64,000 nt of DNA from a virus. Position numbers and translations under genes: made by a program. A model generated the notes under the pieces. It saw only the letters and a program-made list of their open reading frames with translations, searched no databases and had not been told where the DNA came from. Where the stretch lies: IMG/VR virus record IMGVR_UViG_3300042502_001233, positions 19,125 to 83,124 of that record, one strand, 5' to 3'. Of the stretch, positions 7,606-64,000 are shown one piece after another (position 1 is the stretch's first letter; each line of letters opens with the position of its first letter).

Positions 7606-7619
7606 TATTATAAATATCT
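7606..7619 (-). promoter_or_regulatory. class-2 motif (minus strand GATATTTATAATAA) immediately upstream of the endonuclease ATG
   Basis: Plus-strand ttattataaatatc; the same motif is found before most endonuclease genes. Confidence 0.35.
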
Positions 7620-7652
7620 AGAAATATTAGAAAAGTTAGATTAGTATCAAAT

Positions 7653-8255
7653 TTATTTAGTAATTAATAAAAATTCATCTTCTTCTGTTAATTCGCTGAC
7701 CATTCTATAACAATTTAGTTTAGGTAACCAAACTTTATGATTTCCAGTTAATTTAACGGTAGTCCCATCTTCTAATTCAATTTCAAACCAATCGTTAATA
7801 TTCTTCTTAACTGAATAATCAATAATCTCGTCATACATTGGTTCATTACTTTCTAAATCTAATGATAAAACTTTACCAGAATACTTAGTTTCACATATCT
7901 CACGAATCGTCATTTCACCATCTTCAGTTATAAGAACAGTGTCCTCATGACAGCAACCATCAAGTTTCTCTAACACATTGGCTGTGTTCCAATCTATTTT
8001 AGCAGCGTTTCCTTCTTCAGCGTTGAAGAATTTACGGAACGCCAACGACATAACTTTCCACGTACCTTTTTCAAGAATAAGACCACGACAATCTTGCATC
8101 TCTGGCAACCCCATAAGAGTTGGTGACGATAATTGGTCATATTTCAAAAGAATCTTGTTATCGTATTCTCTTGATTTAAGTTTAAAGTCATTTATAGCTT
8201 TATCTAGTCCATATTTTTTTATATATGTAACGATAGCTAATTCATTATTTTTCAT
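7653..8255 (-). CDS. RNA ligase 1 N-terminal part (motif I KLDG) fused to a split-intein N-segment (IntN, about 99 aa)
   Basis: LPEMQDCRGLILE...FRKFFNAEEGN...LEKLDG aligns to T4 Rnl1 LPDALECRGIMFE...MEKFFNLNENP...LTKEDG. It is followed directly by CCHEDTVLITEDGEMTIREI, which is intein block A. Confidence 0.8.
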   Translation of the reverse strand: MKNNELAIVTYIKKYGLDKAINDFKLKSREYDNKILLKYDQLSSPTLMGLPEMQDCRGLILEKGTWKVMSLAFRKFFNAEEGNAAKIDWNTANVLEKLDGCCHEDTVLITEDGEMTIREICETKYSGKVLSLDLESNEPMYDEIIDYSVKKNINDWFEIELEDGTTVKLTGNHKVWLPKLNCYRMVSELTEEDEFLLITK

Positions 8256-8273
8256 TTTTTTTTTATTTTTAAA

Positions 8274-9138: not shown

Positions 9139-9498
9139 TTATTGTTCGTCGTCTTCTTCGTTATCATCGTTATCATCGAAGCCATCTTCTCTCATGTCTT
9201 CAATTGCTCTGATGATATCATCATAAGTTCCGCTGTCTGCTCTCTGTTTCATATCCCTAAGGAAAGATGAATCCGATTCATCCAAATTATCAAATAATTT
9301 TTTAGCAGAGAACATGGAAACTAGTTCGCTAAATTTGTTTACGTCATTTTCATCGAAAGCTAAACCCCCTAAGAAAATTAACATTGTTCCTAATTGTGAT
9401 ATGGTTACATCACCAGTTTCAGAACCTTCGTGCATCAGAGCTTGACCCATTTTCATGAATTTAGTCGTCAGCTCTAATCGTCTTTCTACGTTTGCCAT
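9139..9498 (-). CDS. small protein with poly-acidic C-terminal tail
   Basis: C-terminus DGFDDNDDNEEDDEQ. Confidence 0.4.
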   Translation of the reverse strand: MANVERRLELTTKFMKMGQALMHEGSETGDVTISQLGTMLIFLGGLAFDENDVNKFSELVSMFSAKKLFDNLDESDSSFLRDMKQRADSGTYDDIIRAIEDMREDGFDDNDDNEEDDEQ

Positions 9499-9510: not shown

Positions 9511-9528
9511 TTTACAAAGATACTATTT
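9511..9528 (-). promoter_or_regulatory. class-1 -7 box (tacaaagatact on plus = TAGTATCTTTG on minus)
   Basis: 15 nt upstream of the ATG at 9498. Confidence 0.45.
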
Positions 9529-9545
9529 TAAACAATACCAAGCAA

Positions 9546-10187
9546 TTATTTTGAATAATAATAACTTGGGATTCTTATTTTAACACCGTGTCTAGCACCC
9601 AAAGCATCAACACCTTCTGTAAATCTAGTATCAAAACCACAAGTTTCTTCAACGACACCCGTAAGATAAAGAGTATACTGAGCTTTACCCAACCAATCTT
9701 TTTCTTTTCTAATATCACTAACACTTACTATTAAACCGTTGAATGTATGGTCTTTCATAAACTCATTCAATTCTTCTTTAAGGGTTTCTTCATCAATATC
9801 CATTTGAAATGGAACACCCATAGATGTTAGTGATTCGCTAACCATTTCGTTGTATCTTCCGAAACTTCCGTTTATTAAAACTTGGAATGGAACCCATTTA
9901 ACCACATGTGGTTCATTATGGTTTATTTTACCAGAATACTTGGCTAAATAAGTATAACCCATGTTACCACTTTTATGTATCGCAAATACCAATTGTAAAT
10001 CAGAAATATCCAAACCAGTTTCTTCTTTACATTCTCTTATGGCTGTTACCATAGGGTTTCCGATGTCTTCTATTTCACCTTTGCCGCCGATTAACCCAAA
10101 ATCATTATGATTATCTTTTCTAGAAACACCAAGTATTAACCCGTCTTCATTTATTAATACAACTTGTGACGTATATTTTATTTCCAT
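9546..10187 (-). CDS. Nudix hydrolase
   Basis: Nudix box GGKGEIEDIGNPMVTAIRECKEETGL. Confidence 0.8.
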   Translation of the reverse strand: MEIKYTSQVVLINEDGLILGVSRKDNHNDFGLIGGKGEIEDIGNPMVTAIRECKEETGLDISDLQLVFAIHKSGNMGYTYLAKYSGKINHNEPHVVKWVPFQVLINGSFGRYNEMVSESLTSMGVPFQMDIDEETLKEELNEFMKDHTFNGLIVSVSDIRKEKDWLGKAQYTLYLTGVVEETCGFDTRFTEGVDALGARHGVKIRIPSYYYSK

Positions 10188-10267
10188 TATTTTATTTTTT
10201 TACAAAAATACGAATTAATTTTAAACAAAACAAGAACTTTAAAAAATATCTTCATATTTATAGATAT

Positions 10268-10420
10268 ATGAAGAATAAATATAAAACGAAAACAAAAGTA
10301 AATTATTCTATTAATTCCGAAATAGTTAATAGTTTTAATGATTTAGCTGATAAAAAATCAGTTAATAAATCAAAATTAATAGGTCAATTAATACAAAAAT
10401 GGATAAATGAAAACTTATAA
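10268..10420 (+). CDS. small ribbon-helix-helix (CopG-like) protein preceding the GIY-YIG gene
   Basis: MKNKYK...VNYSINSEIVNSFNDLADKKSVNKSKLIGQLIQKW; the same NKSKLI..LL motif occurs in four other small ORFs before HNH genes. Confidence 0.4.
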   Translation: MKNKYKTKTKVNYSINSEIVNSFNDLADKKSVNKSKLIGQLIQKWINENL

Positions 10421-11611: not shown

Positions 11612-12133
11612 TTATATAATTTTAAAATTAATAGCTTGATGGATACTGAGCCTATCCTCTTTTATCGCATCTTCAATTGTTTCGTGACCAATGTACCAAA
11701 AAGAATCAAATTTACAAAATTTTTCTTTACCCTTTATGTTTCGTTTATAAACCCCATTTGTTTCTGGGAAAATACTGGACTCAATTTTCATTGTAGGGTG
11801 TTTTTTAAGTGACCATTTAATTGGAGTTTTCCAAGTTATAAACAAAGTTTTCGTAACCCCATTTATTGATTTAATTCTGTGGAAGTCTGTTGGTTTCCTG
11901 AATATTACTGAACCAACACTATGTTTTTTAACCTTTATTTTATCACCATCTAAAAATTCTTCAACATAACCATTTTTAAGGATTACGGATATGAAATAAA
12001 AAGGATGGTTATGTAAAAAAGGCGTTTTGTCTTCACTTAAAATTGTGTGAAAACGAACATGTAGTTTTTTATAAGACATCAAAGTCTTTCTAATCATATA
12101 ATTAGGTAAACTATTATACTCCTTAAGTAACAT
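11612..12133 (-). CDS. possible cupin-fold protein
   Basis: LHNHPF...HSVGS...FHRI His-rich motifs; weak. Confidence 0.25.
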   Translation of the reverse strand: MLLKEYNSLPNYMIRKTLMSYKKLHVRFHTILSEDKTPFLHNHPFYFISVILKNGYVEEFLDGDKIKVKKHSVGSVIFRKPTDFHRIKSINGVTKTLFITWKTPIKWSLKKHPTMKIESSIFPETNGVYKRNIKGKEKFCKFDSFWYIGHETIEDAIKEDRLSIHQAINFKII

Positions 12134-12183
12134 AACTATTTTTTACAAAGATACGATATGTTTTTAATATATGCAAATAAAAA

Positions 12184-13128: not shown

Positions 13129-13152
13129 TGTGCAAATGTATATATTAGTTTT

Positions 13153-13932
13153 TTAACTAGCAACTTTTTTATATAATAATTTTTTAACGTTTGGTGTCAA
13201 AGAGAAATTTGGAATTTCTTTTAAACACCATTTAAGATAATGCGGTGCTGTTTTGGCAATCTCTCCAACTGTTTTACCTTTGTTCTTACCAAAATTAATC
13301 ACATCATCTTCATCCAACGCTTTTGATACTTTGGTTGTGGCTGGTTTCTTTTTATCTTCCATTAACATAAGTTTAGAATCTTTTAAATCAACCATGTGAA
13401 GCATAATCTTAGCCTCATCTTTAGCATCAGCGCCAGCTCTATGTTCTTCAACATATACCTCACCGTCCTTCATAAAGAATTGGTTATAAATCTCTTCCAC
13501 CGATGGTCTTTTGGTTTTACCATTCTTATCTTTGTATTGTGAGTATTGTGTGGCTGTTTGCATAAGACACTTAACGTCTTTCATTTCAAACCCAGCAGCT
13601 TTCAAGAATCTAAGGTCAAATGATTTGTTATATGCGGTCATTTTGTATTTGTCAAACAATTCTTGGAGTTCTTCTCTGTAATCATCCAAAGATTTCGCAT
13701 TTTCAACGTCTTCAACCGTAAGTGTTGTGTTTTGGAATATCCAAGAGTTCTTATGTCTTTTTGAGTTAAACTTATCGTGTTTAATTACGTTATCGAAAAC
13801 TATTTCGATTTTTTTGGTTACGGTATCCACTAAGGCAATACCTATTTCTACGATAGCATCAGACTGCGCGTAAAAACCTGTTGTTTCAATATCTACTACT
13901 AATAATTTCATGTATTTTGTTGTTATAAACAA
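13153..13932 (-). CDS. DEDDh 3'-5' exonuclease (DnaQ/RNase T-like)
   Basis: Exo I VVDIETTG, Exo II AYNKSFDLRFL, Exo III H...D (EEHRAGADA). Confidence 0.75.
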   Translation of the reverse strand: MFITTKYMKLLVVDIETTGFYAQSDAIVEIGIALVDTVTKKIEIVFDNVIKHDKFNSKRHKNSWIFQNTTLTVEDVENAKSLDDYREELQELFDKYKMTAYNKSFDLRFLKAAGFEMKDVKCLMQTATQYSQYKDKNGKTKRPSVEEIYNQFFMKDGEVYVEEHRAGADAKDEAKIMLHMVDLKDSKLMLMEDKKKPATTKVSKALDEDDVINFGKNKGKTVGEIAKTAPHYLKWCLKEIPNFSLTPNVKKLLYKKVAS

Positions 13933-13942
13933 ATATACTAAA

Positions 13943-14875
13943 TTAAGTTTGATTTATCAAGTGAATAATTGAAGGGTTGTAAACTATTATGTGTTTTATA
14001 TTTTCATAGTCTTTATTTACTATGATTCCGTCAATACCTAAAGAAACACAATTTCTAACAAATTCAACTGGGTTATATCTGTAAAAATCAATCCATACTT
14101 GAAGAATGCAGTCTTTTTCGTTATCATTGAAGTTCATACAACCTTCAACAAATTCTTGCATACCTCTTATTGGATTTTCGTCCCAATTTTGTGCACTACC
14201 TTCCCAATCTTCAGCCATCATAGCTAATTTTTTGATATAAGGTCTTAATTTATTTTTGTTTATTGGAACTTGGTCAAATAAAACTCTTGGTGTTAGTTTT
14301 ACACTATAGATATTTTCACCATAACGACCAGCTTCTTCTTTTGATGTGGTGAAGTAAATACCTGGACCTTCTAGGTCATTGGCTTCTTTACCACCAACAA
14401 AATCATCCATAAATTTAGTTATTTTGGTTGGGCTACCGTGAAATACGTAGTATTCACCACCATCGATTGATTCTGGTAATAAATTTTCCCTAAGCAAAGT
14501 CTTAATCAAAAACTTATTCTCGTTTAACGAATTTAACATAAAATTACAGTTTGGAAATAAAATAATTTCATTGGTTTCACCATCTTTCATTGTGATAATC
14601 GCATCATAACCCAAACCCATTAATTTTTTTGTTAATTGTTTACCCTTGGCTTTATATTCTTTAGCCAATTCGTATTTGTAAGAAATTTGGGTGTCATCGT
14701 CAACCTCTATTGTAAGTGGATTTTTTATTACAGCCAAACCAGAAACCCATGGTTCTTTAACTGGTCTATCAGTATCTTTTTCAATCACATATGTACCAGA
14801 TGGTTCAACATCTTGACCGAACATAGAACCGTAGTATTGTGCTGGTTCCATGTTTTTCATTATCCTTAATATCAT
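13943..14875 (-). CDS. possible PARP-like (H-Y-E class) ADP-ribosyltransferase domain protein
   Basis: YVFHGSPTKI and GPGIYFTTSKEEAGRYG resemble PARP1 LLWHGSRTTN and GKGIYFADMVSKSANY; the catalytic Glu position is uncertain. Confidence 0.35.
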   Translation of the reverse strand: MILRIMKNMEPAQYYGSMFGQDVEPSGTYVIEKDTDRPVKEPWVSGLAVIKNPLTIEVDDDTQISYKYELAKEYKAKGKQLTKKLMGLGYDAIITMKDGETNEIILFPNCNFMLNSLNENKFLIKTLLRENLLPESIDGGEYYVFHGSPTKITKFMDDFVGGKEANDLEGPGIYFTTSKEEAGRYGENIYSVKLTPRVLFDQVPINKNKLRPYIKKLAMMAEDWEGSAQNWDENPIRGMQEFVEGCMNFNDNEKDCILQVWIDFYRYNPVEFVRNCVSLGIDGIIVNKDYENIKHIIVYNPSIIHLINQT

Positions 14876-14915
14876 ATTTTCTTTTTATATAAATATCATG
14901 ATTCAAGGGAAAATC

Positions 14916-15647: not shown

Positions 15648-15725
15648 AATATTTTTTTATTATAAATATAATGAATTCGAACCAAAAGTCAACTATTTTT
15701 AAATTTAATTTTATGTTCAGATTTG

Positions 15726-17092: not shown

Positions 17093-17725
17093 TTATACTC
17101 GACCTAATCTCCAATTATCTGGAATTAAATCATCTTTTTTAATCTTTTTATTTTCACTACCATTTGTTACCCATCGACTACCAAATTGTGAATTTGTTTC
17201 ACCAACACCAGTACCTTTTTTTACTTTAGACATTAATTGTTTAGATTCATGACTATGGGTTTCACCTTCCCAATTTTTAATCCAATTTTTATCTCTAGTA
17301 CCAGTTAAATATTCTAGTGTTCTAGCTGTTGATATTTTATTACTTTTCTTTTCTACCCATTCTGGGTCTTGTCTTAAAAGCTTTTGTTTTTCGTTTGATT
17401 TAATCGCATTCAATTTTTGTTGTTCCGAGCTAAACCCACCAGTACCACCTTCTCTAAGATTCATACACATAGGGTTTTCCACCAACTCTTTAGTAACAAT
17501 TTCAATCTCTCTAAGAACCATTTCTTCTCTTGTAGGTAAAAATTCAAGTATTTCTTTTGTATGGTTTTCCACACCATGTTTTCTAATTGAATACCTAAGT
17601 CTTTTACCACTCCCCATATAACCATCTTCCAGGTTATATGCACTATGCATTCCTACATAATATCTTCCCGTTACATTACATGTTGTTTTATATATGTAAT
17701 GTATGTTTCTTTGTTTTCTTGCCAT
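17093..17725 (-). CDS. GIY-YIG homing endonuclease
   Basis: IHYIYKTTCNVTGRYYVGMHS...GYMGSG; paralog of 38029..38688. Confidence 0.8.
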   Translation of the reverse strand: MARKQRNIHYIYKTTCNVTGRYYVGMHSAYNLEDGYMGSGKRLRYSIRKHGVENHTKEILEFLPTREEMVLREIEIVTKELVENPMCMNLREGGTGGFSSEQQKLNAIKSNEKQKLLRQDPEWVEKKSNKISTARTLEYLTGTRDKNWIKNWEGETHSHESKQLMSKVKKGTGVGETNSQFGSRWVTNGSENKKIKKDDLIPDNWRLGRV

Positions 17726-17784
17726 TTCTCTTTCTTTCTAAATAAATATCTTAAGAAAGAGAAAAGTACAAAAAAGTTTAAGAG

Positions 17785-18387: not shown

Positions 18388-18456
18388 ACTAATAAATATC
18401 TAACATTTTGTAAAAGTGCGGATAATTTTTAATATTCACCGCATTTGTAAACTTTG

Positions 18457-20438: not shown

Positions 20439-20483
20439 AATATAAAGTATTTTTACATAAATATATTATGGCAAAGTAATAAA

Positions 20484-22549: not shown

Positions 22550-22601
22550 AAATTTAATTTTATAATAAATATCTCTTAATATCCTAAAAGTGTCTTGTTA
22601 T

Positions 22602-22620
22602 TTTGCAAAGATACTACTAT
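22602..22620 (-). promoter_or_regulatory. class-1 -7 box upstream of the endonuclease gene
   Basis: tgcaaagatactact. Confidence 0.4.
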
Positions 22621-22623
22621 TTT

Positions 22624-23850
22624 TTAATTAAACAAATTAGTTCTTAATATTTTTTTTATTTCGTTTAAATCCAAGGCTAATTGATTAGGGTCAACAAATT
22701 TTTGTTTCTTCTTTTTCTCTTTTGGTGGTTGAATACCAAAATTCATCACTTTCATTGCTGTTGGTAAATCTAAGTAAGTTTCAATCATTCTATTAATATA
22801 ACTACCATAAATTTCATCTTCATCATCACCAGAATCGCCCATATCTCTGTTGGCCATATTGTATAATCTTTCAGAATCGCCTCTATAATCTGAATAATCA
22901 TATAATAATGGTTTTGTAAGTACGTGCATGAAATCTTCAGAATCTGAAGCTTGCGAAAAATCTATAATTATGTAACAATACCCGTTAGTAGAATTGTTGT
23001 ACCAATCATTCCAATTTGTATCACCACCTTTTCTATTATAAGTAAAACACCACAATGAATTACAACCAATTAGTTTAATACCTTCTGGACCAGAAACTTC
23101 AATAATCATTATGTTACCTTTATTATATTTAACCTTTAACTCATCATAATTTTCTTTATCGTATTTAAGTATTTGCCCTACTTGTTTTCTGGTCATATCG
23201 ACACCACCCAAAAGACTTTCTTTGTCGTAAAGAAAATCCATAACGTTATCCAAGGTTGTATTTTTTGTAAAAATTTTAGCTAGAATACTACGTTTAGCTT
23301 CTTCGTTTCTATTGTTTAACATGGACATATAAGCGTCAGCATTTTCTAATGAATCTCTATAATGATTCATTTCACTACTATCTCTTTCTCTTCTAATATC
23401 ATCCTTCATATTTCGTTTTGCTATTGAAGGCCATTCGTTAAATATGTTAAGTATTTTTTCACGCTGAGTCAAAGCTCTGATTAAGTCATTTACGTTTTCA
23501 ACACCGTTGATATTAAAACCTTTGATTGGGAATACGTTTTTGTTGTATTCTTTTAATTGATTGTATAATGGTCTTAGTTTTTTCAAATCATCCATACCCA
23601 TAACGTCATTCTCAGGTTTTTCAGTTTCTTGATGTTCTGGGTCTATTTGTTTTAACACCCAATTACCTGTTCTATGACCATCCATTAACATAATGTAGTA
23701 TATGTCAGTCATAATTTTGGTATATGGGTCACCATTGGTGACATGTGTGATTATTTCTCTAACTCTAGGTGATAATTTTCCAGAATTGAAATAAACTTTG
23801 TCAGCCAATTGTAGGTTTTCTCTAAGTAATTGTTTTATAAAATCCTTCAT
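22624..23850 (-). CDS. hypothetical protein
   Basis: 408 aa. Confidence 0.5.
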   Translation of the reverse strand: MKDFIKQLLRENLQLADKVYFNSGKLSPRVREIITHVTNGDPYTKIMTDIYYIMLMDGHRTGNWVLKQIDPEHQETEKPENDVMGMDDLKKLRPLYNQLKEYNKNVFPIKGFNINGVENVNDLIRALTQREKILNIFNEWPSIAKRNMKDDIRRERDSSEMNHYRDSLENADAYMSMLNNRNEEAKRSILAKIFTKNTTLDNVMDFLYDKESLLGGVDMTRKQVGQILKYDKENYDELKVKYNKGNIMIIEVSGPEGIKLIGCNSLWCFTYNRKGGDTNWNDWYNNSTNGYCYIIIDFSQASDSEDFMHVLTKPLLYDYSDYRGDSERLYNMANRDMGDSGDDEDEIYGSYINRMIETYLDLPTAMKVMNFGIQPPKEKKKKQKFVDPNQLALDLNEIKKILRTNLFN

Positions 23851-23878
23851 ACCTATAAATATCCTATAAAATAAAAAA

Positions 23879-25299: not shown

Positions 25300-25349
25300 T
25301 TATTGTGGTACAAAGATACCACAAGTTTTTTAATTGTACAACTTTTTTT

Positions 25350-30088: not shown

Positions 30089-30107
30089 TCTACAAAGATA
30101 CGAATTA
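30089..30107 (-). promoter_or_regulatory. class-1 -7 box upstream of the 1298-aa gene
   Basis: tacaaagatacgaat. Confidence 0.4.
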
Positions 30108-30296: not shown

Positions 30297-30368
30297 TTCA
30301 TAAATTTATGACTTTTTTAAATTTCCACGATATTTATAAGTATATAACATTTATTAATACTCATTATC

Positions 30369-34991: not shown

Positions 34992-35036
34992 ACATGCAAA
35001 GATACTAACAATATCATCGCTTGTCAAGTTTTTTTC
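34992..35036 (-). promoter_or_regulatory. class-1 promoter (TTGACA-N17-TAGTATCTTTG on minus strand)
   Basis: Plus-strand atgcaaagatactaacaatatcatcgcttgtcaagttttttt. Confidence 0.5.
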
Positions 35037-35223: not shown

Positions 35224-35296
35224 AAATCGCACTGGTACGACTTTTTTCTAATTTCTAGATATTTATAGATATAACAATTATCTAACACAAAATATC

Positions 35297-37545: not shown

Positions 37546-37934
37546 AATATTCTTTTATAATAAATATCACAAATAATTAAAAAAACCACAAATGGCAAAG
37601 AATTCCATTCGTTCTTAAAGATTTCTTTTGCGTTTTTACCCGTTAGTCAGATGCTAACAAATCCTAACCTATCTTCGGTTATTATTCAGTCGATGTTATT
37701 GTTCTTCGCTGTTTTAATGTAAATGTCGCGCATTTCACAAACCAACAGCTTCGCATCGGTTCCACCTTCTGCGTCTCGGATTTCTAAATTAATTTTTCCC
37801 ATTGGTTTTGTTTTTTGTTGTTTGTTATTAGTTTTAATAAAAAACCCCATATTGCTATGGGGTTTAGTATTTTACAGAATAGTTTTTGTTTTTTTTTCCT
37901 TAAAAATTTCAATTGCTGAATCTATTCTTCTAGT

Positions 37935-38688: not shown

Positions 38689-38746
38689 TTCAATTTCTTT
38701 AATAATAAATATCTCAGAAAACTGAAAAGTACAAAAAAGTCTCCAG

Positions 38747-39234: not shown

Positions 39235-39280
39235 ATATGCAAAGATACTAATATTTCACTCTCATGTCAAGTTTTTTTTT
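39235..39280 (-). promoter_or_regulatory. class-1 promoter (TTGACA-N17-TAGTATCTTTG)
   Basis: Plus-strand atatgcaaagatactaatatttcactctcatgtcaagttttttttt. Confidence 0.5.
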
Positions 39281-39724: not shown

Positions 39725-40103
39725 ATGGTGGAGTTATGGGGAATCGAACCCCAGTGTTGCATATTCTTCAAAAGCTTTCTACATGTTTATCTAGTTTCTA
39801 ATTCTAGCAAAGTTGTGCTGCGTTATTTATCCCGATGGAAGTGCAGCGACCATCGTTCCTTTTTTTACAACTAGGAAGTTGGTTCTTGGTGATTTATCAC
39901 CATCAAGTGGAATTACCACTATTAGCTATAATTAGGCTACAGCTACCTCTCCTGCGAAACTGAATGCAGCTTCGTTAAGGAAATTTTCAGAAACGATGAA
40001 ATCGTTGTCAATTCAATTTTTTAATAGACAGATTAAAGTGCTTCCAATCTAGCACTACATGCTTACGATTTACGACTATATCCAGTCAATACCGTTTAAC
40101 CCC
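39725..40103 (-). ncRNA. ssrA: tmRNA-like RNA (ssrA candidate), about 379 nt
   Basis: The 5' end GGGGTTAAACGGTATTGACTGG pairs with the 3' end (GGGGTTA / TAACTCC, one G.U). The 3' end has T-arm TGGGG-TTCGATT-CCCCA, acceptor strand and an encoded CCA. There is an internal candidate tag ORF ...GCAGGAGAGGTAGCTGTAGCCTAA (AGEVAVA*). A class-1 promoter lies about 50 nt upstream. Confidence 0.5.
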
Positions 40104-40147: not shown

Positions 40148-40200
40148 TTTTTACAAATATACTACATATTTTATCAAAATGCAAGTTTATTTTAAAATAT
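40148..40200 (-). promoter_or_regulatory. class-1 promoter upstream of the tmRNA-like gene
   Basis: ttacaaatatactacatattttatcaaaatgcaagtttatttt. Confidence 0.45.
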
Positions 40201-42138: not shown

Positions 42139-42180
42139 TTTACAAATATACTAATATTATCCTTTATTTGCAAGTTTTTC
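42139..42180 (-). promoter_or_regulatory. class-1 promoter
   Basis: tacaaatatactaatattatcctttatttgcaagttttt. Confidence 0.45.
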
Positions 42181-43176: not shown

Positions 43177-43234
43177 GTGTAATCTTTATTTTTATGCAAA
43201 TATACTTAAATTTATAATATAAAACAAATAATTT

Positions 43235-43888
43235 ATGAAATACCGCGTAATTTTAACATCCAATGGTGAATACAAGAAAACTCTACATATAAGTAAGACC
43301 AGAGAAACAGCCTTTAAGAACTTTCACAAGATAAAAGATGAAAACAAAGTGTATTTTCCTAAAAAATTCATAAATAGCCATGGTATTAGACCAGTTAAAT
43401 ATGAAATATGTATCACTAAACCAACTGAAGAAGGTGATGTGTTTAGAACGCGTAGAGATGACTATGGAAAATTGTATACTGAACCACCATTGGGTGATTG
43501 GACTATTCTACATTCTGATAATTTTGAAATAGAAGAAACATTTTACATATATGGTTACGAAGAAAAAGAAAGACCTACTATTACTGAAATAGTTAAACGT
43601 CTTATGGTTAACGCTCACTCGAAAAAGATTGTGAAACAAGTTATCGTGGTTTATAATAAGTTAATCATATACAATGAAGAACAATTTGATTTGGTTTTGT
43701 GTAAAAACCTAGAAGAAGCTCAAAGATTGCACCATACACTAGCCAAAATAGTAAAAAAGCAAAAGATTAAAAGTTTATTGTTTATGGGCACCGCTTCAAA
43801 AGCGAATATAGGGCGTTTATACGATTTAATTCACGATGAAACAGGTTGGTCGTACAGAAAGATAAGAAGAACCAGTACAAAACCTTAA
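43235..43888 (+). CDS. hypothetical protein (plus strand)
   Basis: 217 aa, located in an inter-operon gap. Confidence 0.45.
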   Translation: MKYRVILTSNGEYKKTLHISKTRETAFKNFHKIKDENKVYFPKKFINSHGIRPVKYEICITKPTEEGDVFRTRRDDYGKLYTEPPLGDWTILHSDNFEIEETFYIYGYEEKERPTITEIVKRLMVNAHSKKIVKQVIVVYNKLIIYNEEQFDLVLCKNLEEAQRLHHTLAKIVKKQKIKSLLFMGTASKANIGRLYDLIHDETGWSYRKIRRTSTKP

Positions 43889-44514
43889 AAAAGTAAAATA
43901 CAACTAGTTGGTCTAATGGTTAGTTTTATATCCATCAATTCATCTGATGAGTAATCTAACTCACCAAAATCTATTCGACTAACAAAACCTCTGATAACCC
44001 ATTCTTCAACCAAGTCACCAACTGGACCCAATAATTGTATTCTATATTCAAATTCTCTATTGGTGTAAGAACTACCAACTCTCAAAAATAGTTCGTGCAT
44101 TCTTTCAGCCATTGATGGTCCGATTGGGTCTCTAAAAATTATTTCGATATCTTCCCATTCCACTCTACCATTATTAAACGTAACACTAGGCCTAACAGTT
44201 GTTTTTACAACTTGATGAGGAATTTCAAATTCGTCTGGGAATAACAACATAAATCTATTAGGTCTTTTAGGTTCATAAAAACTAGCTAGGTTAGGTTTGC
44301 TCCAAAATTTATCTAGGTTTTCTAAATCATCAATTTTGTTTGAAATCCATTGTTTAACTACTTGTTCAGAAATAGATAATTCTACAGAAAAAATAAGTGT
44401 AATCTCTTCTGCAATATGTCTACCATAATCTTTACCACCAAAATGAGTGTGAACTATGTTTGAATCACCCAACACATAGTTCATATCCATATAATCAAAC
44501 AATCTTTTTTCCAT
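43885..44514 (-). CDS. hypothetical protein
   Basis: 209 aa. Confidence 0.45.
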   Translation of the reverse strand: MEKRLFDYMDMNYVLGDSNIVHTHFGGKDYGRHIAEEITLIFSVELSISEQVVKQWISNKIDDLENLDKFWSKPNLASFYEPKRPNRFMLLFPDEFEIPHQVVKTTVRPSVTFNNGRVEWEDIEIIFRDPIGPSMAERMHELFLRVGSSYTNREFEYRIQLLGPVGDLVEEWVIRGFVSRIDFGELDYSSDELMDIKLTIRPTSCILLF

Positions 44515-44768
44515 TATTTAAACAAACCTTCAAGTTTTCCAACTAGTACCGAAATCCTAGCATCATTTTTTCTTATTTGTTCTTCTAAGTGTGGTGGTAT
44601 GTTACCAGCAAATTCAGATTTTATTTTAGAGTTTTGTCTTTGAAGCGCATCGCTTTCTCTAAGACATTCTTCATATATCGCAGCTTTTTGGTCGTTATTC
44701 ATTTTTATCACATTTACAGTTACCACCGCATTCGCATGGTTTATTTTCAGTTTCTTCGTCTTCAACAT
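44514..44768 (-). CDS. hypothetical protein
   Basis: 84 aa. Confidence 0.35.
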   Translation of the reverse strand: MLKTKKLKINHANAVVTVNVIKMNNDQKAAIYEECLRESDALQRQNSKIKSEFAGNIPPHLEEQIRKNDARISVLVGKLEGLFK

Positions 44769-45033
44769 CGATATCAGTATCTATTGAAAATTGTTCTTTT
44801 ATATCTTCAACCATTTGGTTAATTTTTGCCATATCAGCCTCAGCTATGATTGATGGGTTGATACATTCTACTCTTTCTTCACCTTTGGTAGGAATAAAGA
44901 ATGCCATAGCGTTAGAATTTTTTTCAGCTAACATATGATTTACAGATTCAGCAAAAGGTTGAATAATTTCTTTGATTTTCATCATTTCAGCATCCAAGTA
45001 AAATACAAGGATAAGTGGATATTGGTTTTCCAT
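44695..45033 (-). CDS. hypothetical protein with C-terminal Cys motif (CECGGNCKC)
   Basis: 112 aa. Confidence 0.35.
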   Translation of the reverse strand: MENQYPLILVFYLDAEMMKIKEIIQPFAESVNHMLAEKNSNAMAFFIPTKGEERVECINPSIIAEADMAKINQMVEDIKEQFSIDTDIDVEDEETENKPCECGGNCKCDKNE

Positions 45034-45036
45034 AGT

Positions 45037-45297
45037 TTATTGTTTATAATTTGTTATTTCTTCAACATAATTTGATATATCGTCACTGTTTGGGATAGTT
45101 TTGAAATGTGTTACTAAATATTCTGTAACTACCAAGGATTTCTCGGTTTGACCTAAAACTTCTCTACATGCGATGTTTTTACCATCAATGTTTATATATA
45201 TTAAGTATTCGCTAATATAGTTTTTTCCTTTTTTTCTACTGTAAAATCTATCAATTTCTTTTACTATTATTTTTGTCATAAAATTTATTTTAAACAA
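45037..45297 (-). CDS. hypothetical protein
   Basis: 86 aa. Confidence 0.35.
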   Translation of the reverse strand: MFKINFMTKIIVKEIDRFYSRKKGKNYISEYLIYINIDGKNIACREVLGQTEKSLVVTEYLVTHFKTIPNSDDISNYVEEITNYKQ

Positions 45298-45574
45298 GTA
45301 TAACGAAAAACAATAAATATGTAAATGATATAAATAAAAAAAGCCCCATTGCTGGAGCTTTCTTTTTATTCGATTTGTCTACAAGATGCGGGGGCATTTA
45401 CTTCTAAACCCAGTTACGAAGTTTCTCTCGATTCAAAAAATTTTAGAGGTTACAAGAGAGGACCTACGTTAAATAGTGTATCTGAATATTTGTAGTTTTT
45501 TTGTTTGCTGCATACAACTTTTAAGCGACAAATCTAGTTAAGACACGGAGCAGTTTCCCACCCCGCACTTAGTT
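45298..45574 (-). other. 277-nt noncoding region with long-range stem (UGCGGGG ... CCCCGCA about 140 nt apart); candidate structured RNA
   Basis: atgcgggggcat at about 45415 pairs with ccccgcac at about 45562; no ORF. Confidence 0.3.
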
Positions 45575-47042: not shown

Positions 47043-47090
47043 TAATGCAAAGATACTACTTTTTATATATGCTTGTCAAGTTTTTTTTCG
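47043..47090 (-). promoter_or_regulatory. class-1 promoter (TTGACA-N17-TAGTATCTTTG)
   Basis: atgcaaagatactactttttatatatgcttgtcaagtttttttt. Confidence 0.5.
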
Positions 47091-47696: not shown

Positions 47697-47734
47697 TTTA
47701 TTATATTAATACGGCAAAGATACTAAATTAAACC

Positions 47735-47965
47735 TTATACTCCAACTATTTTATAAAGTTTTACAACAATACCAGCAATCTCAATCTCAAACTCATCATC
47801 ATAAGTTATAAAGTTCGCTGTTGGATTGTTTTTATAAAACAAAACTTCATTGATTTTTCTATACTCATGTTCTGGTAGTGTATATGACAACATCAACCCT
47901 TTCTTTTGTATTCTTTCGTCAGCAATTATTACCGACACTGTTTCTATTAATTGTTCGTAATTCAT
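47735..47965 (-). CDS. hypothetical protein
   Basis: 76 aa. Confidence 0.3.
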   Translation of the reverse strand: MNYEQLIETVSVIIADERIQKKGLMLSYTLPEHEYRKINEVLFYKNNPTANFITYDDEFEIEIAGIVVKLYKIVGV

Positions 47966-48179: not shown

Positions 48180-48289
48180 ATTTTTTTTGTTTTAAATATA
48201 GTTATTGTTTTTATTTTTGTAAATAACAAAAATATTTGTATATAAATATTGACTATTTTGTACATAAACCGTATATTTGAATAAAAATT

Positions 48290-51190: not shown

Positions 51191-51242
51191 TGTTTTTGTT
51201 TTTAAAAAATATTATACCCATAAATATCTTAAAAACAAAAAA

Positions 51243-52945: not shown

Positions 52946-53016
52946 TTTTAAAGTTTTATTATAAATATCTATATTTTATGTAAAATCTATGTAAATACCT
53001 ATTATCTATCATTTTT

Positions 53017-55484: not shown

Positions 55485-55772
55485 TTAATTTGCTTTGTTA
55501 CTTAAACTATCTCTCCACAAACCTCTTTTAACCCATAAGGCTTTATAAAGTTGTGTGAGAACATTTTTTGTTATATCAACTATTTTATCTTCTAATTCTT
55601 TTTCATTTTTAAGTCTATCTTTAACAATTTTTTCAATTTTCTTTTTGAATTCATTGCTATCCATATAAACTTTAATCTCTTTAGAGACATCAGATTTTGA
55701 TAGTGTTTCGTTTATTTTTTTACTATTTTTAGTCATAGTGTAGTTTTTATTATAAATATTAAGAATAAACAA
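55485..55772 (-). CDS. hypothetical protein
   Basis: 95 aa. Confidence 0.35.
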   Translation of the reverse strand: MFILNIYNKNYTMTKNSKKINETLSKSDVSKEIKVYMDSNEFKKKIEKIVKDRLKNEKELEDKIVDITKNVLTQLYKALWVKRGLWRDSLSNKAN

Positions 55773-55792: not shown

Positions 55793-55813
55793 CTTTTATT
55801 AAAGATATATTGT

Positions 55814-58921: not shown

Positions 58922-58952
58922 AGTAATAAATATTACGATTATATAATTGTTA

Positions 58953-59786: not shown

Positions 59787-59874
59787 TAAAATTGTTCATA
59801 CTTTTTCTTTTTTTGTTATGTTTAACTTATTAAATATACGACATATTGTTAATAAAGTCAAGGGTTTACGGTAA

Positions 59875-60423
59875 TTATTTTACCAAAAACCCCAATATTT
59901 TTTTGTCATAATCTGTTAAGTTTTGAACACCTTTATCAATAATGTTGTCATACAATTTTTTCTTTTCTGTTTTGCACATATTGTTGATGTCTTCTTGACT
60001 TAACTCGATAGTAACTGCTGTTGTTTCAGTACACGCACTAATTTTGTTTGTGTCTCTTTCACTATTGTTAATGGTTTTGATAGTGTTTAAAAAGTCTATC
60101 GTGTTTTCTCCAAGTATTCTATCGTTGTTTTCTTTTAAAAAACCGAATAACCCTTCGTGGATATCTTTTTTGTTGATAAAAAACCCAGAATTCTCTTGGT
60201 CCAAATCAAAAACTAAAAAACTTCTATTATTTGATTTAAACCATTCGGATAGTTCCTTGGGTTCCATAAACGAAGTAAATGTAGCAATAACTATACCTTT
60301 TGCATCCAAAACGTTTGATTTTGACTCACTAACTTTATCTATTTCGGGGACAACACCTATTGTGTCTCCCATGATTACTACGCAATAATTTCTGAATTTC
60401 ATATCATTTATTTTATAATACAA
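59875..60423 (-). CDS. hypothetical protein
   Basis: 182 aa. Confidence 0.4.
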   Translation of the reverse strand: MYYKINDMKFRNYCVVIMGDTIGVVPEIDKVSESKSNVLDAKGIVIATFTSFMEPKELSEWFKSNNRSFLVFDLDQENSGFFINKKDIHEGLFGFLKENNDRILGENTIDFLNTIKTINNSERDTNKISACTETTAVTIELSQEDINNMCKTEKKKLYDNIIDKGVQNLTDYDKKILGFLVK

Positions 60424-60451
60424 ATATATTACTTTTTTGGGTAATATGCAA

Positions 60452-62758
60452 TTAATTAAACGTTATTTTAGAAATATTATTTTCTTTAACTACAGTAACC
60501 ACGTTTGTTGACCAATCTTTAACGATATCGTTGTGTGTGATAAAGAAGACGATATCATACATGTCTTTTACTTTATCAAACAACAATTTTAGTTTTTCAA
60601 GATTCTCTGGAGCCACTTTACCCAACACTTCATCAAACGTGATGAAATTAGGCATAGGTAGTGTAGATAGTTTCCCTAACACAGCTCTTAAAGCTAGACT
60701 GGCAGCAGTTTTTTCTAACCCAGACCCAGATTTTAACAATTTAGAAACACCATCTTTAACTAATAAAAACTGAACATCGTTCTTATCATTAATAAATATC
60801 TCGATTTCAAAATCTACAACATCTTCTAATAATCTTTGAACTTCTGAATTGATAATTGGGAGAACTGAGCGCAATACCAATTTACTAATACCTTTCTTAC
60901 CAACCAATTCAATGTATATCTTGAATATTTTATCAACTTCCTCTTCTTTTTTTATAGTTTCAATAAGTTTTGTTTTTATACCAATATGTTCCGCGTTGAT
61001 TCTTAATTCACTTTGAACTCGTTCGAGACTTCTGATTGTTTCGTCTTTTTTATATTCTTTAACTGAAATATCTGTAATAATTTTACTAACAGCTATTTCT
61101 ACACTACGATTTAACTCTATCGCTTCTAAGTTTAATTTGTATTTTTTCAAATCATTCTTTTTAGCAACAATTTGGTTTCTTAATCCACCCATTTCAACTT
61201 CTAATCTGTCTATATCCAATTCCTTTTTACCAATTGAGTCAGCAATTTTTTTGGTTTCATTTAAACCTTCAAGTTCTTCAACACTTTTTAAAAGTTTATC
61301 AGTAAGTTCTTTTACTTCTTTGTTTATTTTTTCAATCTCAACCTCATGTTTAGCTATATGTGCTGAATTATCAACATCATCTAATTTTCTGTTACATGAT
61401 TGACAAATACCACCAGCAATTAAATCGGATACAACTTTTTTAAGTCTTTTTGATTCGGCTTCTTTAACTGCTTTATCCATATTTAATTTACTACCTAATT
61501 TTGTCAACTCATGATGTCTATCTTCATCAAATTCAATTTTACCTATCTCTTCGATTTCACTTTTTATAGTTGTTACTTTACCACTTAACTCAACACCTTT
61601 ATCAATGAGTGTTTTAATGTCATCTTCAAGTCTTTGGGGGTTTAATTCTGAAATTGTTACGTCAATTTTCTCTTTGCTGTTTAAAAGAGCATCTTTTTCA
61701 GTTTTTAACTCTTCCAAAGATTGTTTAGTAGTTTCTAAAGTTTCGTTTAAATCACTTTCTAGTTCATTATAGTTCACAATTTTTTCATTGTGGTCATCAA
61801 TCTCTTGACCCAAAGTTATAACGTCGTATTCGTTAGATTTCTTCTTTTTAGAAAATTCATTGTACATCGTTCTAGCGATTGCTTCTTTCATTTCAAGAAC
61901 TTCTAAACCAATAAGTCTAGTAAGTATCTTACCAGATTCAGTTGTTGTCAATCCAATCAATTCATCCAAGTTTTTTTCAGTAGCCAAAACCAACATTTCA
62001 AAATCTTTTTCGGTTCCGATGCTTTCTTTTAACTTTTTAGTTGTTTGTTTGGCATCTTCTTCATTTAATTCCTCTTCTTCACCATCTGGTTGAATTTTAT
62101 AGTAGTTTACTTTGTTTACAACAGTCCAACCACCACCTTTTTTAGAAGTACGTCTCATTTTTCTTTCAATGATAGTCTCTTCACCTTCAATTTCAATCAT
62201 TCCACGAACAACCAACTCATTCTTTTCAGAGTATGTGTTGAATATTTGCTCGTTGGTATCTGTTTTGGTTGTACTACCATGAAGCAAAAACTTAATAGCG
62301 TCGATTGTAAGCGTTGTATTATGTGATACGATTCCATTGGTATAATATTGATGGACTTCGGCTACTTGAATATCGTATAATGTATCTTTTTCTTTTAATA
62401 ATTCAATAGTAGCAACAGCACTATCACCATCGTTTGTTTGAATCATCTCACCAACTTTTATCTCTTTAAGGACAACAAACTCATCATCCGTTTTCTTTAA
62501 ACGATGATAATCAGCACCTTCAACAAACATTCCGTTTTGAAGTTCACATCTATAAACATCAGCATTTTCTTCTGTAATTCCACACCACTCAATGTCTTTA
62601 TAACCATATGGTGTATCAACTTTAAATCCTAGGTCTCCGTATTTTTGGTAAATATTATTTAATTCACCAATTGTAATTTCTTTATTCTCCATCTTTTTTA
62701 TATAAATTAATTTCTTCAATTTCAAATTCAATACCACGAAGTTTATCTTTAGATTCAA
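60452..62758 (-). CDS. SbcC/Rad50-like recombination ATPase (T4 gp46-like) preceded in-frame by an intein C-segment (blocks B, F, G; about 125-147 aa)
   Basis: N-terminal VYRCELQNGMFVEGADYHRL (block B-like) ... DTLYDIQVAEVHQYYTNGIVSHN|TTLTIDAIKFLLHG, where the extein starts at the [ST]T of the P-loop. The C-terminus has the signature motif, Walker B FITFDEV and H-loop FFITHN. Confidence 0.7.
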   Translation of the reverse strand: MNLKINFVVLNLKLKKLIYIKKMENKEITIGELNNIYQKYGDLGFKVDTPYGYKDIEWCGITEENADVYRCELQNGMFVEGADYHRLKKTDDEFVVLKEIKVGEMIQTNDGDSAVATIELLKEKDTLYDIQVAEVHQYYTNGIVSHNTTLTIDAIKFLLHGSTTKTDTNEQIFNTYSEKNELVVRGMIEIEGEETIIERKMRRTSKKGGGWTVVNKVNYYKIQPDGEEEELNEEDAKQTTKKLKESIGTEKDFEMLVLATEKNLDELIGLTTTESGKILTRLIGLEVLEMKEAIARTMYNEFSKKKKSNEYDVITLGQEIDDHNEKIVNYNELESDLNETLETTKQSLEELKTEKDALLNSKEKIDVTISELNPQRLEDDIKTLIDKGVELSGKVTTIKSEIEEIGKIEFDEDRHHELTKLGSKLNMDKAVKEAESKRLKKVVSDLIAGGICQSCNRKLDDVDNSAHIAKHEVEIEKINKEVKELTDKLLKSVEELEGLNETKKIADSIGKKELDIDRLEVEMGGLRNQIVAKKNDLKKYKLNLEAIELNRSVEIAVSKIITDISVKEYKKDETIRSLERVQSELRINAEHIGIKTKLIETIKKEEEVDKIFKIYIELVGKKGISKLVLRSVLPIINSEVQRLLEDVVDFEIEIFINDKNDVQFLLVKDGVSKLLKSGSGLEKTAASLALRAVLGKLSTLPMPNFITFDEVLGKVAPENLEKLKLLFDKVKDMYDIVFFITHNDIVKDWSTNVVTVVKENNISKITFN

Positions 62759-62883
62759 TACGGTTATTAATTAAATCAAACACAGTTTCAATTTGTAAAA
62801 AAGGGCTATCGCCACTAATTATTACTAGGTATTGTATTCTTCTATATGATTTTTGTGTATATTTATAAACACCTTTTTTAATT

Positions 62884-63900
62884 TTATTTATTTCCATTTT
62901 TTAAAAATTTTTTACATTTATTTATTATCTCTTGTTTGTTTTTTTTATATTCGGAATCCCAAACAACTAAAACTTCAAAACCTTTATTATTAGCTATTAA
63001 CATTTTTTGTTTATCTTTATCCCAAATATCTTTAGCTGTTAAGTCTTTTCTAAAAGGGTTTGGATAATCATCTTTATCATATTTATTTGGATTACCATGA
63101 TAATCATCACCATTATACTCAATTATTTTTTTATTTTTTAAGTCAGTAAAATCATATCTATAAAAACCATTATCATCAGTTAAAACAAATTCACCACCTT
63201 TTTTTGCAAAAAGAAAATAATTAATATCATTAATGTCAACTTTTTCTATTAACGTATAAAACAACTCTTGACTTACTTCGGAATAACCAGATTTTAATTT
63301 ACCATTTTTATAAAGTGTTTTTTGCCATTTTATTTGTCTTTCATTAAACTTAACTAACCCTTCTTCTGAACCATATTTTTTAATACAGGTTTTTAAACTA
63401 AACGTTTGTTGTCTTTTAGAAACCATTTGTTTACTTTCTTTATCATCAAAACCTTTATTTAACCAATATTGGATATTAGCACTTCCAAGTTTACCAGCGG
63501 CACTTCTTTTACCTTCTCGTTCTCCCCATTTTTTAGTACCTTCTTTTTCACCAAACCTAGCTATACAACCTCTTAAAGAAACCATTTTTTGACCTTCAAT
63601 TTGTAGTATCGCTTCTTCTTCGGTATAACCATTTTTAACCCAATATTCAATATTTACTGGTCTTAAAGTTCTAATGTGGTCTTCAATTTTGTTTTCATTT
63701 AAACCTCTATCTATCCAATATTGTTTTGAATAAGGTGAACCTTTTGGTATTACAATCCCTAAATTTTTTAACCTACTAGTTATAACACTAGGGTCAACAT
63801 TAAATCTTAGTGCTATCTTATTAGTAGATTCAAAATTCTCATTATACAATTTTAACATTATTTTGATTTCATCATCACTAAATTCTTTTCTTTTTCCCAT
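62884..63900 (-). CDS. freestanding homing endonuclease, Vsr-like/EDxHD-type, N-terminal HTH
   Basis: C-terminal IIEYNGDDYHGNP...K...D; sits immediately upstream of the intein-bearing SbcC-like gene. Confidence 0.7.
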   Translation of the reverse strand: MGKRKEFSDDEIKIMLKLYNENFESTNKIALRFNVDPSVITSRLKNLGIVIPKGSPYSKQYWIDRGLNENKIEDHIRTLRPVNIEYWVKNGYTEEEAILQIEGQKMVSLRGCIARFGEKEGTKKWGEREGKRSAAGKLGSANIQYWLNKGFDDKESKQMVSKRQQTFSLKTCIKKYGSEEGLVKFNERQIKWQKTLYKNGKLKSGYSEVSQELFYTLIEKVDINDINYFLFAKKGGEFVLTDDNGFYRYDFTDLKNKKIIEYNGDDYHGNPNKYDKDDYPNPFRKDLTAKDIWDKDKQKMLIANNKGFEVLVVWDSEYKKNKQEIINKCKKFLKNGNK

Positions 63901-64000
63901 TTTAACTTTTATATCTATAATTATTATTTACTATAAATATAACCGTTTAACCAAAAAGGTAAAGACAAAGAAATAATTATTTTAGTTCATCTGGTAAAAA

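Follow-up and report, generated by a model that had tools for sequence, protein, structure and literature searches.

A late-type promoter motif in an AT-rich, T4-like jumbo phage of Bacteroidota, probably a lineage variant of the T4 late promoter

Two motif classes upstream of the genes in the window

The DNA analyzed here is a 64,000-nucleotide (nt) stretch of the IMG/VR virus record IMGVR_UViG_3300042502_001233 (positions 19,125 to 83,124), hereafter called the window. Two short motifs recur upstream of its genes: class 1 (TTG-N19-20-TAnnTTTG) and class 2 (core TATTTAT). A preliminary description, made from the sequence alone, had taken both to be promoters. This study concerns the nature of class 2 and the factor that reads it.

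The G+C content of the window is about 31%, and the minus strand holds nearly all genes. Its nucleic-acid genes include those for RNA and DNA ligases, a polynucleotide-kinase-like protein, a deoxynucleoside monophosphate (dNMP) kinase, endonuclease VII and RNase HII; these are accompanied by genes for ClpP and DnaJ, a transfer-messenger RNA (tmRNA), 16 tRNA genes and many homing endonuclease genes. The source is an AT-rich, T4-like jumbo phage with a host in the Bacteroidota, probably a member of the Flavobacteriia. No close cultured relative was found using INPHARED megablast and tblastn with the helicase gene, the sigma factor and the 552-amino-acid (aa) protein. Homologues of the sigma gene sit on IMG/VR viral contigs of up to 380 kb (loci L005-L084). 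No described promoter motif specific to such phages was found in the literature.

Class 2 usually reads (G/A)ATATTTAT(A), in which the core TATTTAT is invariant. The string (G/A)ATATTTAT occurs 19 times in the window, with 15 copies in the 12% that is non-coding (the coding/non-coding split rests on our own open reading frame (ORF) calls); a further copy, at 55752-55760, was tallied as coding although the real ATG of its gene, at 55736, is downstream of it. To obtain expected counts, the intergenic DNA itself was dinucleotide-shuffled 500 times. On the gene strand of the intergenic DNA, GATATTTAT was found 10 times vs. 0.14 expected (shuffle maximum, 2), and ATATTTAT was found 19 times vs. 1.6 expected. 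The intergenic copies all aim at the next ATG, including plus-strand copies before plus-strand genes, from a distance of 4-32 nt (mostly 13-16). Class 2 is present at each of the 11 gene starts given in the preliminary description. Sites beyond that list were located before the minus-strand starts at 14875, 20438, 45297, 51190 and 58921 and before the plus-strand starts at 30369, 35297 and about 10270. Two TATATTTAT variants (15662-15670 and 20457-20465) are ambiguous as to class, because a TTG is also present 19 nt upstream.

A precedes TATTTAT in 82% of sites, with G, A or T before that A, and A or T follows. There is no -33/-35 element: unlike class 1, class 2 has no TTG peak at -23. The T-run upstream of class 2 is preceded by G+C-rich stems, i.e. 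it is the tail of a terminator, and the motif is typically located 10-14 nt past an intrinsic terminator. An upstream "CTTTT" block was considered as a general -35-like element and was rejected, as it consists mostly of terminator tails and the 5' arms of hairpins; a residual aACTTT block upstream of the 552-aa gene orthologues is not accounted for by either.

Class 1 is oriented to the downstream gene, strongly non-random and intergenic. Its -7 box, TAnnTTTG, has 26 gene-strand copies in the non-coding DNA of the window, where there are also about 22 oriented TTG-N19-21-TAnnTTT(G/A) sites; strictly inside intergenic segments and on the gene strand, nine were observed vs. 0.25 expected. Among relatives, TTG was found at -23 from the T of TA (20 nt upstream) in 97 of 194 class 1 sites. 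A scan for E. coli-type TTGACA/TATAAT promoters showed no enrichment (75 sites vs. 76 expected). Judged by its sequence, class 1 is the Bacteroidota sigma-A promoter (-33 TTTG, -7 TAnnTTTG), as had been proposed: the TAnnTTTG box and the TTG sharply 19-20 nt upstream are shared, and class 1 likewise serves early-type and RNA genes. Its targets are nucleic-acid-metabolism genes, chaperone genes, a tRNA with anticodon CTA, the phage sigma gene and the tmRNA, the last of which was confirmed with Rfam (Table 1). Unlike the consensus, phage class 1 sites often have TTGAC(A) with an upstream A-tract, and some boxes end in TTTA (the sigma gene and the early promoters of phage immuto, described below). 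Orthologues of 59875-60423 retain TAyyTTTG, and the sigma genes of the closest relatives retain TTGAC-N19-TATATTT(A/G).

Several class 1 promoters have unusual surroundings. Within about 50 nt of the promoter before the RNA ligase-like gene, the segment 2398-2480 (minus strand) holds a hairpin and T-run (ATGGGTGTGTGATAACACCCATTTTTT), which could be an attenuator or a short RNA. Two minus-strand stretches of about 400 nt (18766-19158 and 38820-39240) lack a convincing ORF, yet have good class 1 promoters (18933-18963, 19121-19151 and 39240-39270). Neither stretch had a match in Rfam; they may encode small RNAs or small proteins.

Table 1. Motif sites and related features, in window positions; z-scores refer to RNA hairpins
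Feature	Position	Strand	Downstream gene or remark
Class 1	2480..2510	-	RNA ligase-like gene 1321-2397
Class 1	4273..4302	-	3935-4252 and DNA ligase gene 2530-3933
Class 1	9515..9545	-	9139-9498
Class 1	10203..10233	-	NUDIX gene 9546-10187
Class 1	12146..12176	-	11612-12133
Class 1	13133..13163	-	12190-13128; 4 nt from ATG (spacing fits leaderless mRNA)
Class 1	13930..13960	-	exonuclease gene 13153-13932
Class 1	22606..22635	-	in tandem, upstream of class 2 site 22565-22573
Class 1	25311..25341	-	anticodon-CTA tRNA 25226-25299
Class 1, -7 box (TATCTTTG)	30093..30100	-	SNF2 helicase-methyltransferase gene 26182-30078
Class 1 (AAAAAACTTGACA...TAGTATCTTTG)	34997..35027	-	33389-34927
Class 1	39240..39270	-	upstream of non-coding 38820-39230 and tRNA-Met 38746-38819
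Class 1 (TTGCAT-N20-TATATTTG)	40154..40184	-	upstream of tmRNA
Class 1	42143..42173	-	41672-42106
Class 1	43197..43227	-	DnaJ gene 42157-43176
Class 1	47048..47079	-	DUF2828/DUF7788 gene 45575-47050
Class 1	47715..47745	-	RNase HII gene 47097-47696
Class 1	48249..48279	+	48290-48625
Class 1-type (TTGACT-N20-TATATTTA)	59831..59861	-	sigma gene
Class 1	60421..60451	-	59875-60423; orthologues keep TAyyTTTG
Class 2 (GATATTTAT)	7610..7618	-	homing endonuclease gene 6678-7595; 14 nt from ATG
Class 2 (CATATTTAT)	10253..10261	+	likely true ATG of small ORF preceding GIY-YIG gene 10407-11045
Class 2	14889..14897	-	ADP-ribosyltransferase-like gene 13943-14875
Hybrid (TATATTTAT)	15662..15670	-	HNH gene 15045-15647; TTGACT 19 nt upstream; z = -2.7
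Class 2	17742..17750	-	GIY-YIG endonuclease gene 17093-17725
Class 2	18392..18400	-	endonuclease VII gene 17953-18387; 4 nt from ATG
Hybrid (TATATTTAT)	20457..20465	-	20052-20438; TTG 19 nt upstream; z = -4.3
Class 2	22565..22573	-	Vsr/DUF559-type endonuclease gene 21674-22549
Class 2	23855..23863	-	22624-23850; directly after terminator hairpin, 4 nt from ATG
Class 2	30329..30337	+	small ORF 30369-30530 and HNH/EndoVII-like gene 30520-31185; z = -2.3
Class 2	35258..35266	+	paralogous cassette 35297-35464 and 35448-36071; z = -3.0
Class 2	37560..37568	-	36754-37545 (no function assigned)
Class 2	38705..38713	-	GIY-YIG gene 38029-38688; hairpin 38678-38738, z = -2.75
Class 2 (CATATTTAT)	45313..45321	-	after terminator 45336-45365; heads operon 45297..43885 ending in tail-tube-like gene
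Class 2	51220..51228	-	GH19 lysin gene 50576-51190; after terminator 51237-51267; z = -2.6
Class 2	52961..52969	-	552-aa gene 51287-52945
Class 2 (AATATTTAT)	55752..55760	-	83-aa gene (ATG 55736); after terminator 55772-55797
Class 2 (AATATTTAT)	58926..58934	-	410-aa membrane protein gene and Amidase_2 gene; directly downstream of sigma gene
Class 2 (TATATTTAT)	63933..63941	-	endonuclease-like gene 62884-63900; z = -2.5
Hairpin, class 2 in loop, ATG in 3' arm	17715..17775	-	minimum free energy (MFE) -18.6 kcal/mol, z = -4.3
tmRNA gene	39726..40103	-	Rfam RF00023, 63.1 bits
Sigma-A-like factor, 277 aa	58953..59786	-	Pfam Sigma70 r1.2, r2, r4

Conservation, downstream genes and candidate sigma factors

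In 706 unique upstream regions of relatives, TATTTAT was the commonest sense-strand 7-mer (226 sense vs. 89 antisense); it ranked first in four of the six sigma clades and was present in all six. Across the family, distances from TATTTAT to the ATG cluster at 13-18 nt and, to a lesser degree, at 4-5 nt; those from TAnnTTTG have peaks at 4-5 and 12-18 nt. Because of these peaks, both motifs were taken to sit like -10/-7 boxes before short or absent leaders. The class of promoter is specific to the gene and is kept: orthologues of the 410-aa, 552-aa, GH19 and 83-aa genes retain TATTTAT down to 32-45% identity, often in the order terminator, T-run, motif, 13-17 nt, ATG. Class 2 was present at 16 of 19 GH19 lysin orthologues and at about 38 of 44 orthologues of the 552-aa gene, the latter down to 32% protein identity. 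The spacer orthologous to 58926-58934 contains a terminator followed by nATATTTAT.

These data bear on whether class 2 is a by-product of AT-richness or a passenger of duplicated endonuclease cassettes. The intergenic DNA is indeed very AT-rich, and in two pairs of endonuclease cassettes the members are clearly paralogous and their upstream regions homologous. However, the intergenic shuffles yielded 0.14 copies vs. the 10 observed, so AT-richness does not explain the motif; in addition, sense copies outnumber antisense copies in relatives as given above, and the motif is kept at unrelated, non-mobile genes across distant relatives. A comparison with coding DNA, named in the preliminary description as a check on simple AT-richness, was also run; class 2 was not equally frequent there, and the motif survives. 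The by-product explanation was thus effectively refuted.

The late-type genes behind class 2 in the window are the GH19 lysin gene, the Amidase_2 operon and the tail-tube-like operon. A scan of IMG/VR for the exact 17-mer AGATATTTATAATAAAA identified 120 loci, in 95 of which an ORF started 3-40 nt downstream; the commonest spacings were between 12 and 17 nt. The recurring products were tail tube, tail sheath, baseplate wedge, large terminase and GIY-YIG endonuclease. The baseplate case sits on a 380-kb contig with two sigma-A-like genes (L032, L046, L242). Class 2 had been described as tied to endonuclease genes. Since it also precedes lysis, tail, baseplate and terminase genes, it is instead a general late promoter, and its link to endonuclease genes is real but one-directional. 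The earlier view of class 2 as a separate, phage-specific class of late type is supported.

A further pattern was noted upstream of 50039-50518. Neither class is present in 50519-50575 (minus strand) or in the orthologous spacers of L006, L010, L015, L017 and L055; what is conserved upstream of this gene and its orthologues is cTTTATTTTT-N14-15-TATATTA, which may represent a minor third type of promoter.

The late motif of T4-like phages, TATAAATA (-13..-6), is recognized by gp55; in Aeh1 the motif and gp55 have both diverged (PMC1524935). T4 late promoters, which also involve gp33 and the gp45 clamp and have their start site 6-7 nt downstream, resemble class 2 in that both are a single AT-rich, -10-like block of 7-9 bp, have no -35 element, often follow a terminator and precede virion, lysis, endonuclease VII and homing endonuclease genes; a gp55-like small sigma factor is also encoded in genomes related to the window. 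The differences are that the central AA is TT in class 2, that a G/A-A prefix is preferred, that the gp55-like protein (ca. 240 aa) is marginally similar to T4 gp55 and that the host belongs to the Bacteroidota. As the T4 consensus is not matched, class 2 would be a functionally similar variant and not the same element. On balance, we consider class 2 to be probably a lineage variant of the T4 late promoter, with a gp55-like small sigma factor as its most likely reader.

The gp55-like protein was found by querying the loci captured with the 17-mer with T4 gp55, which returned a protein of about 240 aa (alignment A2; phmmer E = 1e-3). The only PDB match of the A2 profile was T4 gp55 (chain 7d7c_F, E = 0.94), Pfam Sigma70_r2 matched seven of eight A2 members, and a PHROG annotated "late sigma transcription factor" also matched. 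These lines are each weak but agree, and they point to a gp55-like small sigma factor. In at least two cases its gene shares a contig with a sigma-A-like gene (L331 with L005; L338 with L028).

The genomic setting of the gp55-like gene is constant: in L312-L391, it always directly follows a conserved gene, starting no more than about 10 nt past its stop codon. The upstream gene product ends in ...WWL..AKKEYYF..DR.ITY, and the pair seems to be a conserved two-gene module that is probably translationally coupled. Because of this coupling, the promoter class of the gp55-like gene is uninformative.

The only cultured relative is Flavobacterium phage vB_FspM_immuto_2-6A (immuto; complete genome, 160,410 bp), which has T4-like gp20 and gp23 and encodes a gp55-like protein (profile E = 1e-25). 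No sigma-A-like homologue was detected in this complete genome (best tblastn E = 0.6; no profile hit at E <= 10). Sense-strand TATTTAT occurs 42 times in its 11 kb of non-coding DNA vs. 22 times in 149 kb of coding DNA, and it is found 11-26 nt before the terminase, portal, sheath, tube, hub, tape-measure, tail-spike and baseplate genes. The early genes of immuto have TTG-N19-TATATTTAGG, a class 1 variant. Because immuto uses both classes without a sigma-A-like factor, neither class needs that factor.

The sigma-70-family factor that the preliminary description had placed in the window was confirmed by its Pfam Sigma70 regions 1.2, 2 and 4. Its nearest cellular relatives are the 287-aa primary sigma-A factors of Bacteroidota and related phyla (43-47% identity over the full length), of which it is a trimmed copy. 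Region 2.3-2.4 (RFISYAVWWVKQSIIQSL) matches that of the host (KFISYAVWWIRQSILQAL) and not that of E. coli, and region 4.2 (LTKERIRQIKEKAIRKLRH) also matches the host sequence (LTRERVRQIKEKAIRRLKH). Both are invariant across the family, and only regions 1.2 and 3 diverge from the host. The recognition residues and the motif are alike invariant across clades, leaving no covariation to compare.

That class 2 depends on this factor, in a cascade from host sigma-A to the phage sigma to class 2, had been suggested in the preliminary description. Middle or late promoters are the usual targets of phage sigma-70-family factors, e.g. those of SPO1 and phiEco32, and the gene arrangement fits such a cascade: the sigma gene has a conserved host-type promoter, a class 2 site lies directly behind the gene, and the sigma factor and class 2 are both conserved in all relatives examined. 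Regions 1.2 and 3 differ from host sigma-A, and region 1.2 of sigma-70 factors reads the bases at which classes 1 and 2 differ; however, the host-like, family-invariant regions 2.3-2.4 and 4.2 predict recognition of TTG/TAnnTTT-type promoters, and a promoter without a -33/-35 element is ill matched by a factor whose -35-reading helix is intact and conserved. Furthermore, immuto has the same motif before its late genes without a homologue of this sigma, and a gp55-like alternative is encoded in the same genomes. We therefore regard the dependence of class 2 on this factor as unlikely.

A third promoter class private to the sigma-A-like factor was also considered and rejected: after removal of classes 1 and 2, only A-rich leader words were enriched. 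The 380-kb contig mentioned above (IMGVR_UViG_3300030102_006934) carries two paralogous sigma-A-like genes, L032 and L046, whose products are 56% and 53% identical to the window's sigma, respectively.

The sigma-A-like factor might instead occupy the middle tier of a cascade running from host sigma-A through the trimmed, captured sigma-A copy (277 aa) to a gp55-like late sigma, an arrangement that we put forward only tentatively and think rather unlikely. The copy would replace the MotA/AsiA "middle" switch of T4 and could keep class 1-type promoters running after shut-off of host sigma-A; alternatively, it could read a class 1 subclass such as TTGAC...TATATTTA. Smaller relatives such as immuto would do without this tier. 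The cascades of SPO1 (gp28 and gp33/34) and phiEco32 (gp36) are similar in that a sigma-70-family protein is encoded by the phage and expressed from a host-type promoter. They differ in that the window's sigma has host-like promoter-reading helices and no private promoter class was found for it, and class 2 also exists where a sigma of this type does not.

Alternatively, the host sigma-A holoenzyme or the sigma-A-like factor might read class 2, but only when helped by a phage activator or remodeller, cf. MotA/AsiA of T4. The T and A of TATTTAT align with the TA of TAnnTTTG, and AG or GA often precedes both. A weak aCTTT block is present 11-16 nt upstream at several sites and at the 552-aa gene orthologues, but terminator tails and hairpin arms account for most of the upstream T-block. 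The window yielded no activator candidate, and the downstream genes are of late rather than middle type. We judge this explanation to be quite improbable.

Hairpins, endonuclease cassettes and a proposed mechanism

The preliminary description had placed class 2 before nearly every homing endonuclease gene, and this was borne out, with the genes being confirmed using PHROGs and Pfam. Nine of 17 class 2 sites are in RNA hairpins with an MFE z <= -2 (200 shuffles); seven of these are of endonuclease type and two are other sites. The motif is in the loop, and the 3' arm holds the ATG or an A-rich leader, paired with sequence 5' of the motif. Our strongest examples are those at the two GIY-YIG genes (Table 1). 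For endonuclease genes in fractured genes, upstream hairpins that enclose the late promoter TATAAATA have been described (Dassa et al. 2009, PMC2677866). The present genes appear to resemble those of T4 I-TevI, Aeh1 mobE and the fractured-gene endonucleases (PMC2677866) in that free-standing genes are found in early clusters or fractured genes, with their own late-type promoter inside a hairpin that would bury the start codon; also shared is the overlap of the endonuclease gene with the downstream half of the fractured gene. Unlike the I-TevI/mobE type, the embedded motif here is TATTTAT and not TATAAATA, and an A-rich, Bacteroidota-style leader and AUG are occluded rather than a Shine-Dalgarno sequence.

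One locus has this fractured layout, and a second probably does. The arrangement of 5731-8255 (minus strand), a fractured gene with a split intein, is that of Dassa et al. 2009 (PMC2677866): 7653-8255 encodes the N-terminal part of an RNA ligase and an intein N-terminal (Hint) domain, the free-standing endonuclease gene 6678-7595 is inside the fractured ligase gene, and 5731-6681 opens with an intein C-terminal splicing motif, its first codons sharing 4 nt (6678-6681) with the end of the endonuclease gene. Probably, 60452-63900 (minus strand) is a second fractured gene. Its endonuclease-like gene, 62884-63900, matches phrog_22677 and, weakly, DUF559; it is followed by 60452-62758, the N-terminus of which matches the C-terminal half of an intein splicing domain. 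The other, N-terminal half of the host gene would fall past the end of the window.

Three plus-strand cassettes (10253-11045, 30134-31185 and 35061-36071) are antisense to their neighbours, and each combines an endonuclease gene (GIY-YIG/NUMOD1 in one, HNH/EndoVII-like in two) with a class 2 site and a small homologous ORF (about 50 aa). The pattern of the small ORF (...ISISISKENYE...INKSQLINWLLEQ), judged by eye, suggests a ribbon-helix-helix fold. In two of the three cassettes, an extra TATATTTAT and a 46-aa ORF are found upstream. In the segments 16996-17858 and 37933-38819 (minus strand), the GIY-YIG gene is flanked on either side by tRNA genes of the same anticodon: the His pair is 17784-17858 (75 nt) and 16996-17084 (89 nt), and the Met pair is 38746-38819 (74 nt) and 37933-38021 (89 nt). 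This arrangement recalls that of segB within the tRNA cluster of T4 and suggests that homing into tRNA genes was accompanied by duplication.

With class 2 as a variant of the T4 late promoter, the following mechanism is proposed. Class 1 would serve the early and middle genes, i.e. those for ligases, nucleases, chaperones, tRNA, tmRNA and the sigma-A-like factor. Class 2 would drive the lysis and virion genes and the free-standing homing endonuclease genes from a position 13-18 nt before the ATG, or 4-5 nt before it in arrangements that would fit leaderless mRNA. Its reader would be a highly diverged gp55-like small sigma factor encoded elsewhere in the genome and not at 58953-59786. RNA reading through from an upstream class 1 promoter would fold the hairpin and be translationally silent; RNA starting just downstream of class 2 would lose the 5' arm of the hairpin and be translated. 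The synthesis of the endonucleases would thereby be held to late infection, as it is for T4 I-TevI and Aeh1 mobE.

The hairpins and the unusually tight spacing to the ATG (13-18 nt) could also be read as signs that class 2 is no promoter but works at the RNA level, where it would be a translational operator, an enhancer or a processing site set at a constant distance from the AUG. However, many sites are located right after intrinsic terminators, where no other promoter is available, and class 1 boxes share a similar bimodal spacing. At gaps of 4-5 nt, most of the motif would be beyond any plausible contact between a ribosome and a functional leader. In DNA, it is also strand-specific and tracks the orientation of the genes. 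An RNA element is accordingly a very remote prospect.

Several points weigh against class 2 being a T4-type late promoter read by a gp55-like factor. Only six of eight positions match the T4 consensus (TATTTATA vs. TATAAATA), and, for sites located 4 nt from the ATG, agreement with the T4 geometry (-13..-6) requires that GATATTTA be taken as the 8-mer. The similarity of A2 to T4 gp55 is weak (17 bits), and the Sigma70_r2 matches are below the curated cut-off. No gp55-like gene or other transcription factor was found with PHROGs in the window; the gp55-like gene comes only from relatives, whose sigma is 60-69% identical to that of the window, and from immuto, which is distant, its gp55-like protein being 29% identical to the query. 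The structure excess at class 2 is modest across the family (MFE -7.7 vs. -6.1 in shuffles), and the hairpin mechanism would therefore be limited to a subset of sites. Two pairs of hairpins belong to paralogous cassettes with homologous upstream regions (17750 with 38713; 30329 with 35258) and are not independent. Finally, the start sites, the timing and the factor reading class 2 were all deduced from sequence.

Further contents of the window and wider meaning

Uncommon cargo is found in 26182-30078, 36084-36581, 40513-41232, 42157-43176 and 49582-49761 (all minus strand). Among the products are a 1298-aa fusion of an SNF2 helicase with a methyltransferase (26182-30078), ClpP, a full DnaJ and an Hc1 histone-like protein. 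An RF-1-domain (ArfB-like) protein is encoded near the tmRNA region. The tRNA with anticodon CTA at 25226-25299 (minus strand), labelled tRNA-Pyl by ARAGORN, would read the TAG stop codon and has its own class 1 promoter. The genes of the window end in TAA (73), TAG (5) or TGA (5), and there was no sign of TAG recoding in the window, in that ORF coverage barely shifted when TAG was treated as a sense codon. In one relative (L061; IMGVR_UViG_3300040786_000030), ORF coverage was only 39% under the standard code. Stop-codon recoding was rejected as the cause, as neither TAG nor TGA reassignment rescued the coverage; the sequence is probably an assembly full of frameshifts.

These findings do not overturn existing models. 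The question of the sigma-A-like factor is redirected, and its role is now testable. For uncultured T4-like and jumbo phages of Flavobacteriia and other Bacteroidota, the two classes provide a promoter grammar (early, TTG-N19-20-TAnnTTT(G/A); late, (G/A)ATATTTAT(A)) with which the sequences of hundreds of metagenomic contigs can be used to predict temporal classes. In T4, a promoter in a hairpin silences selfish endonuclease genes until late, and this rule would thereby be extended to a host phylum without Shine-Dalgarno-based initiation.

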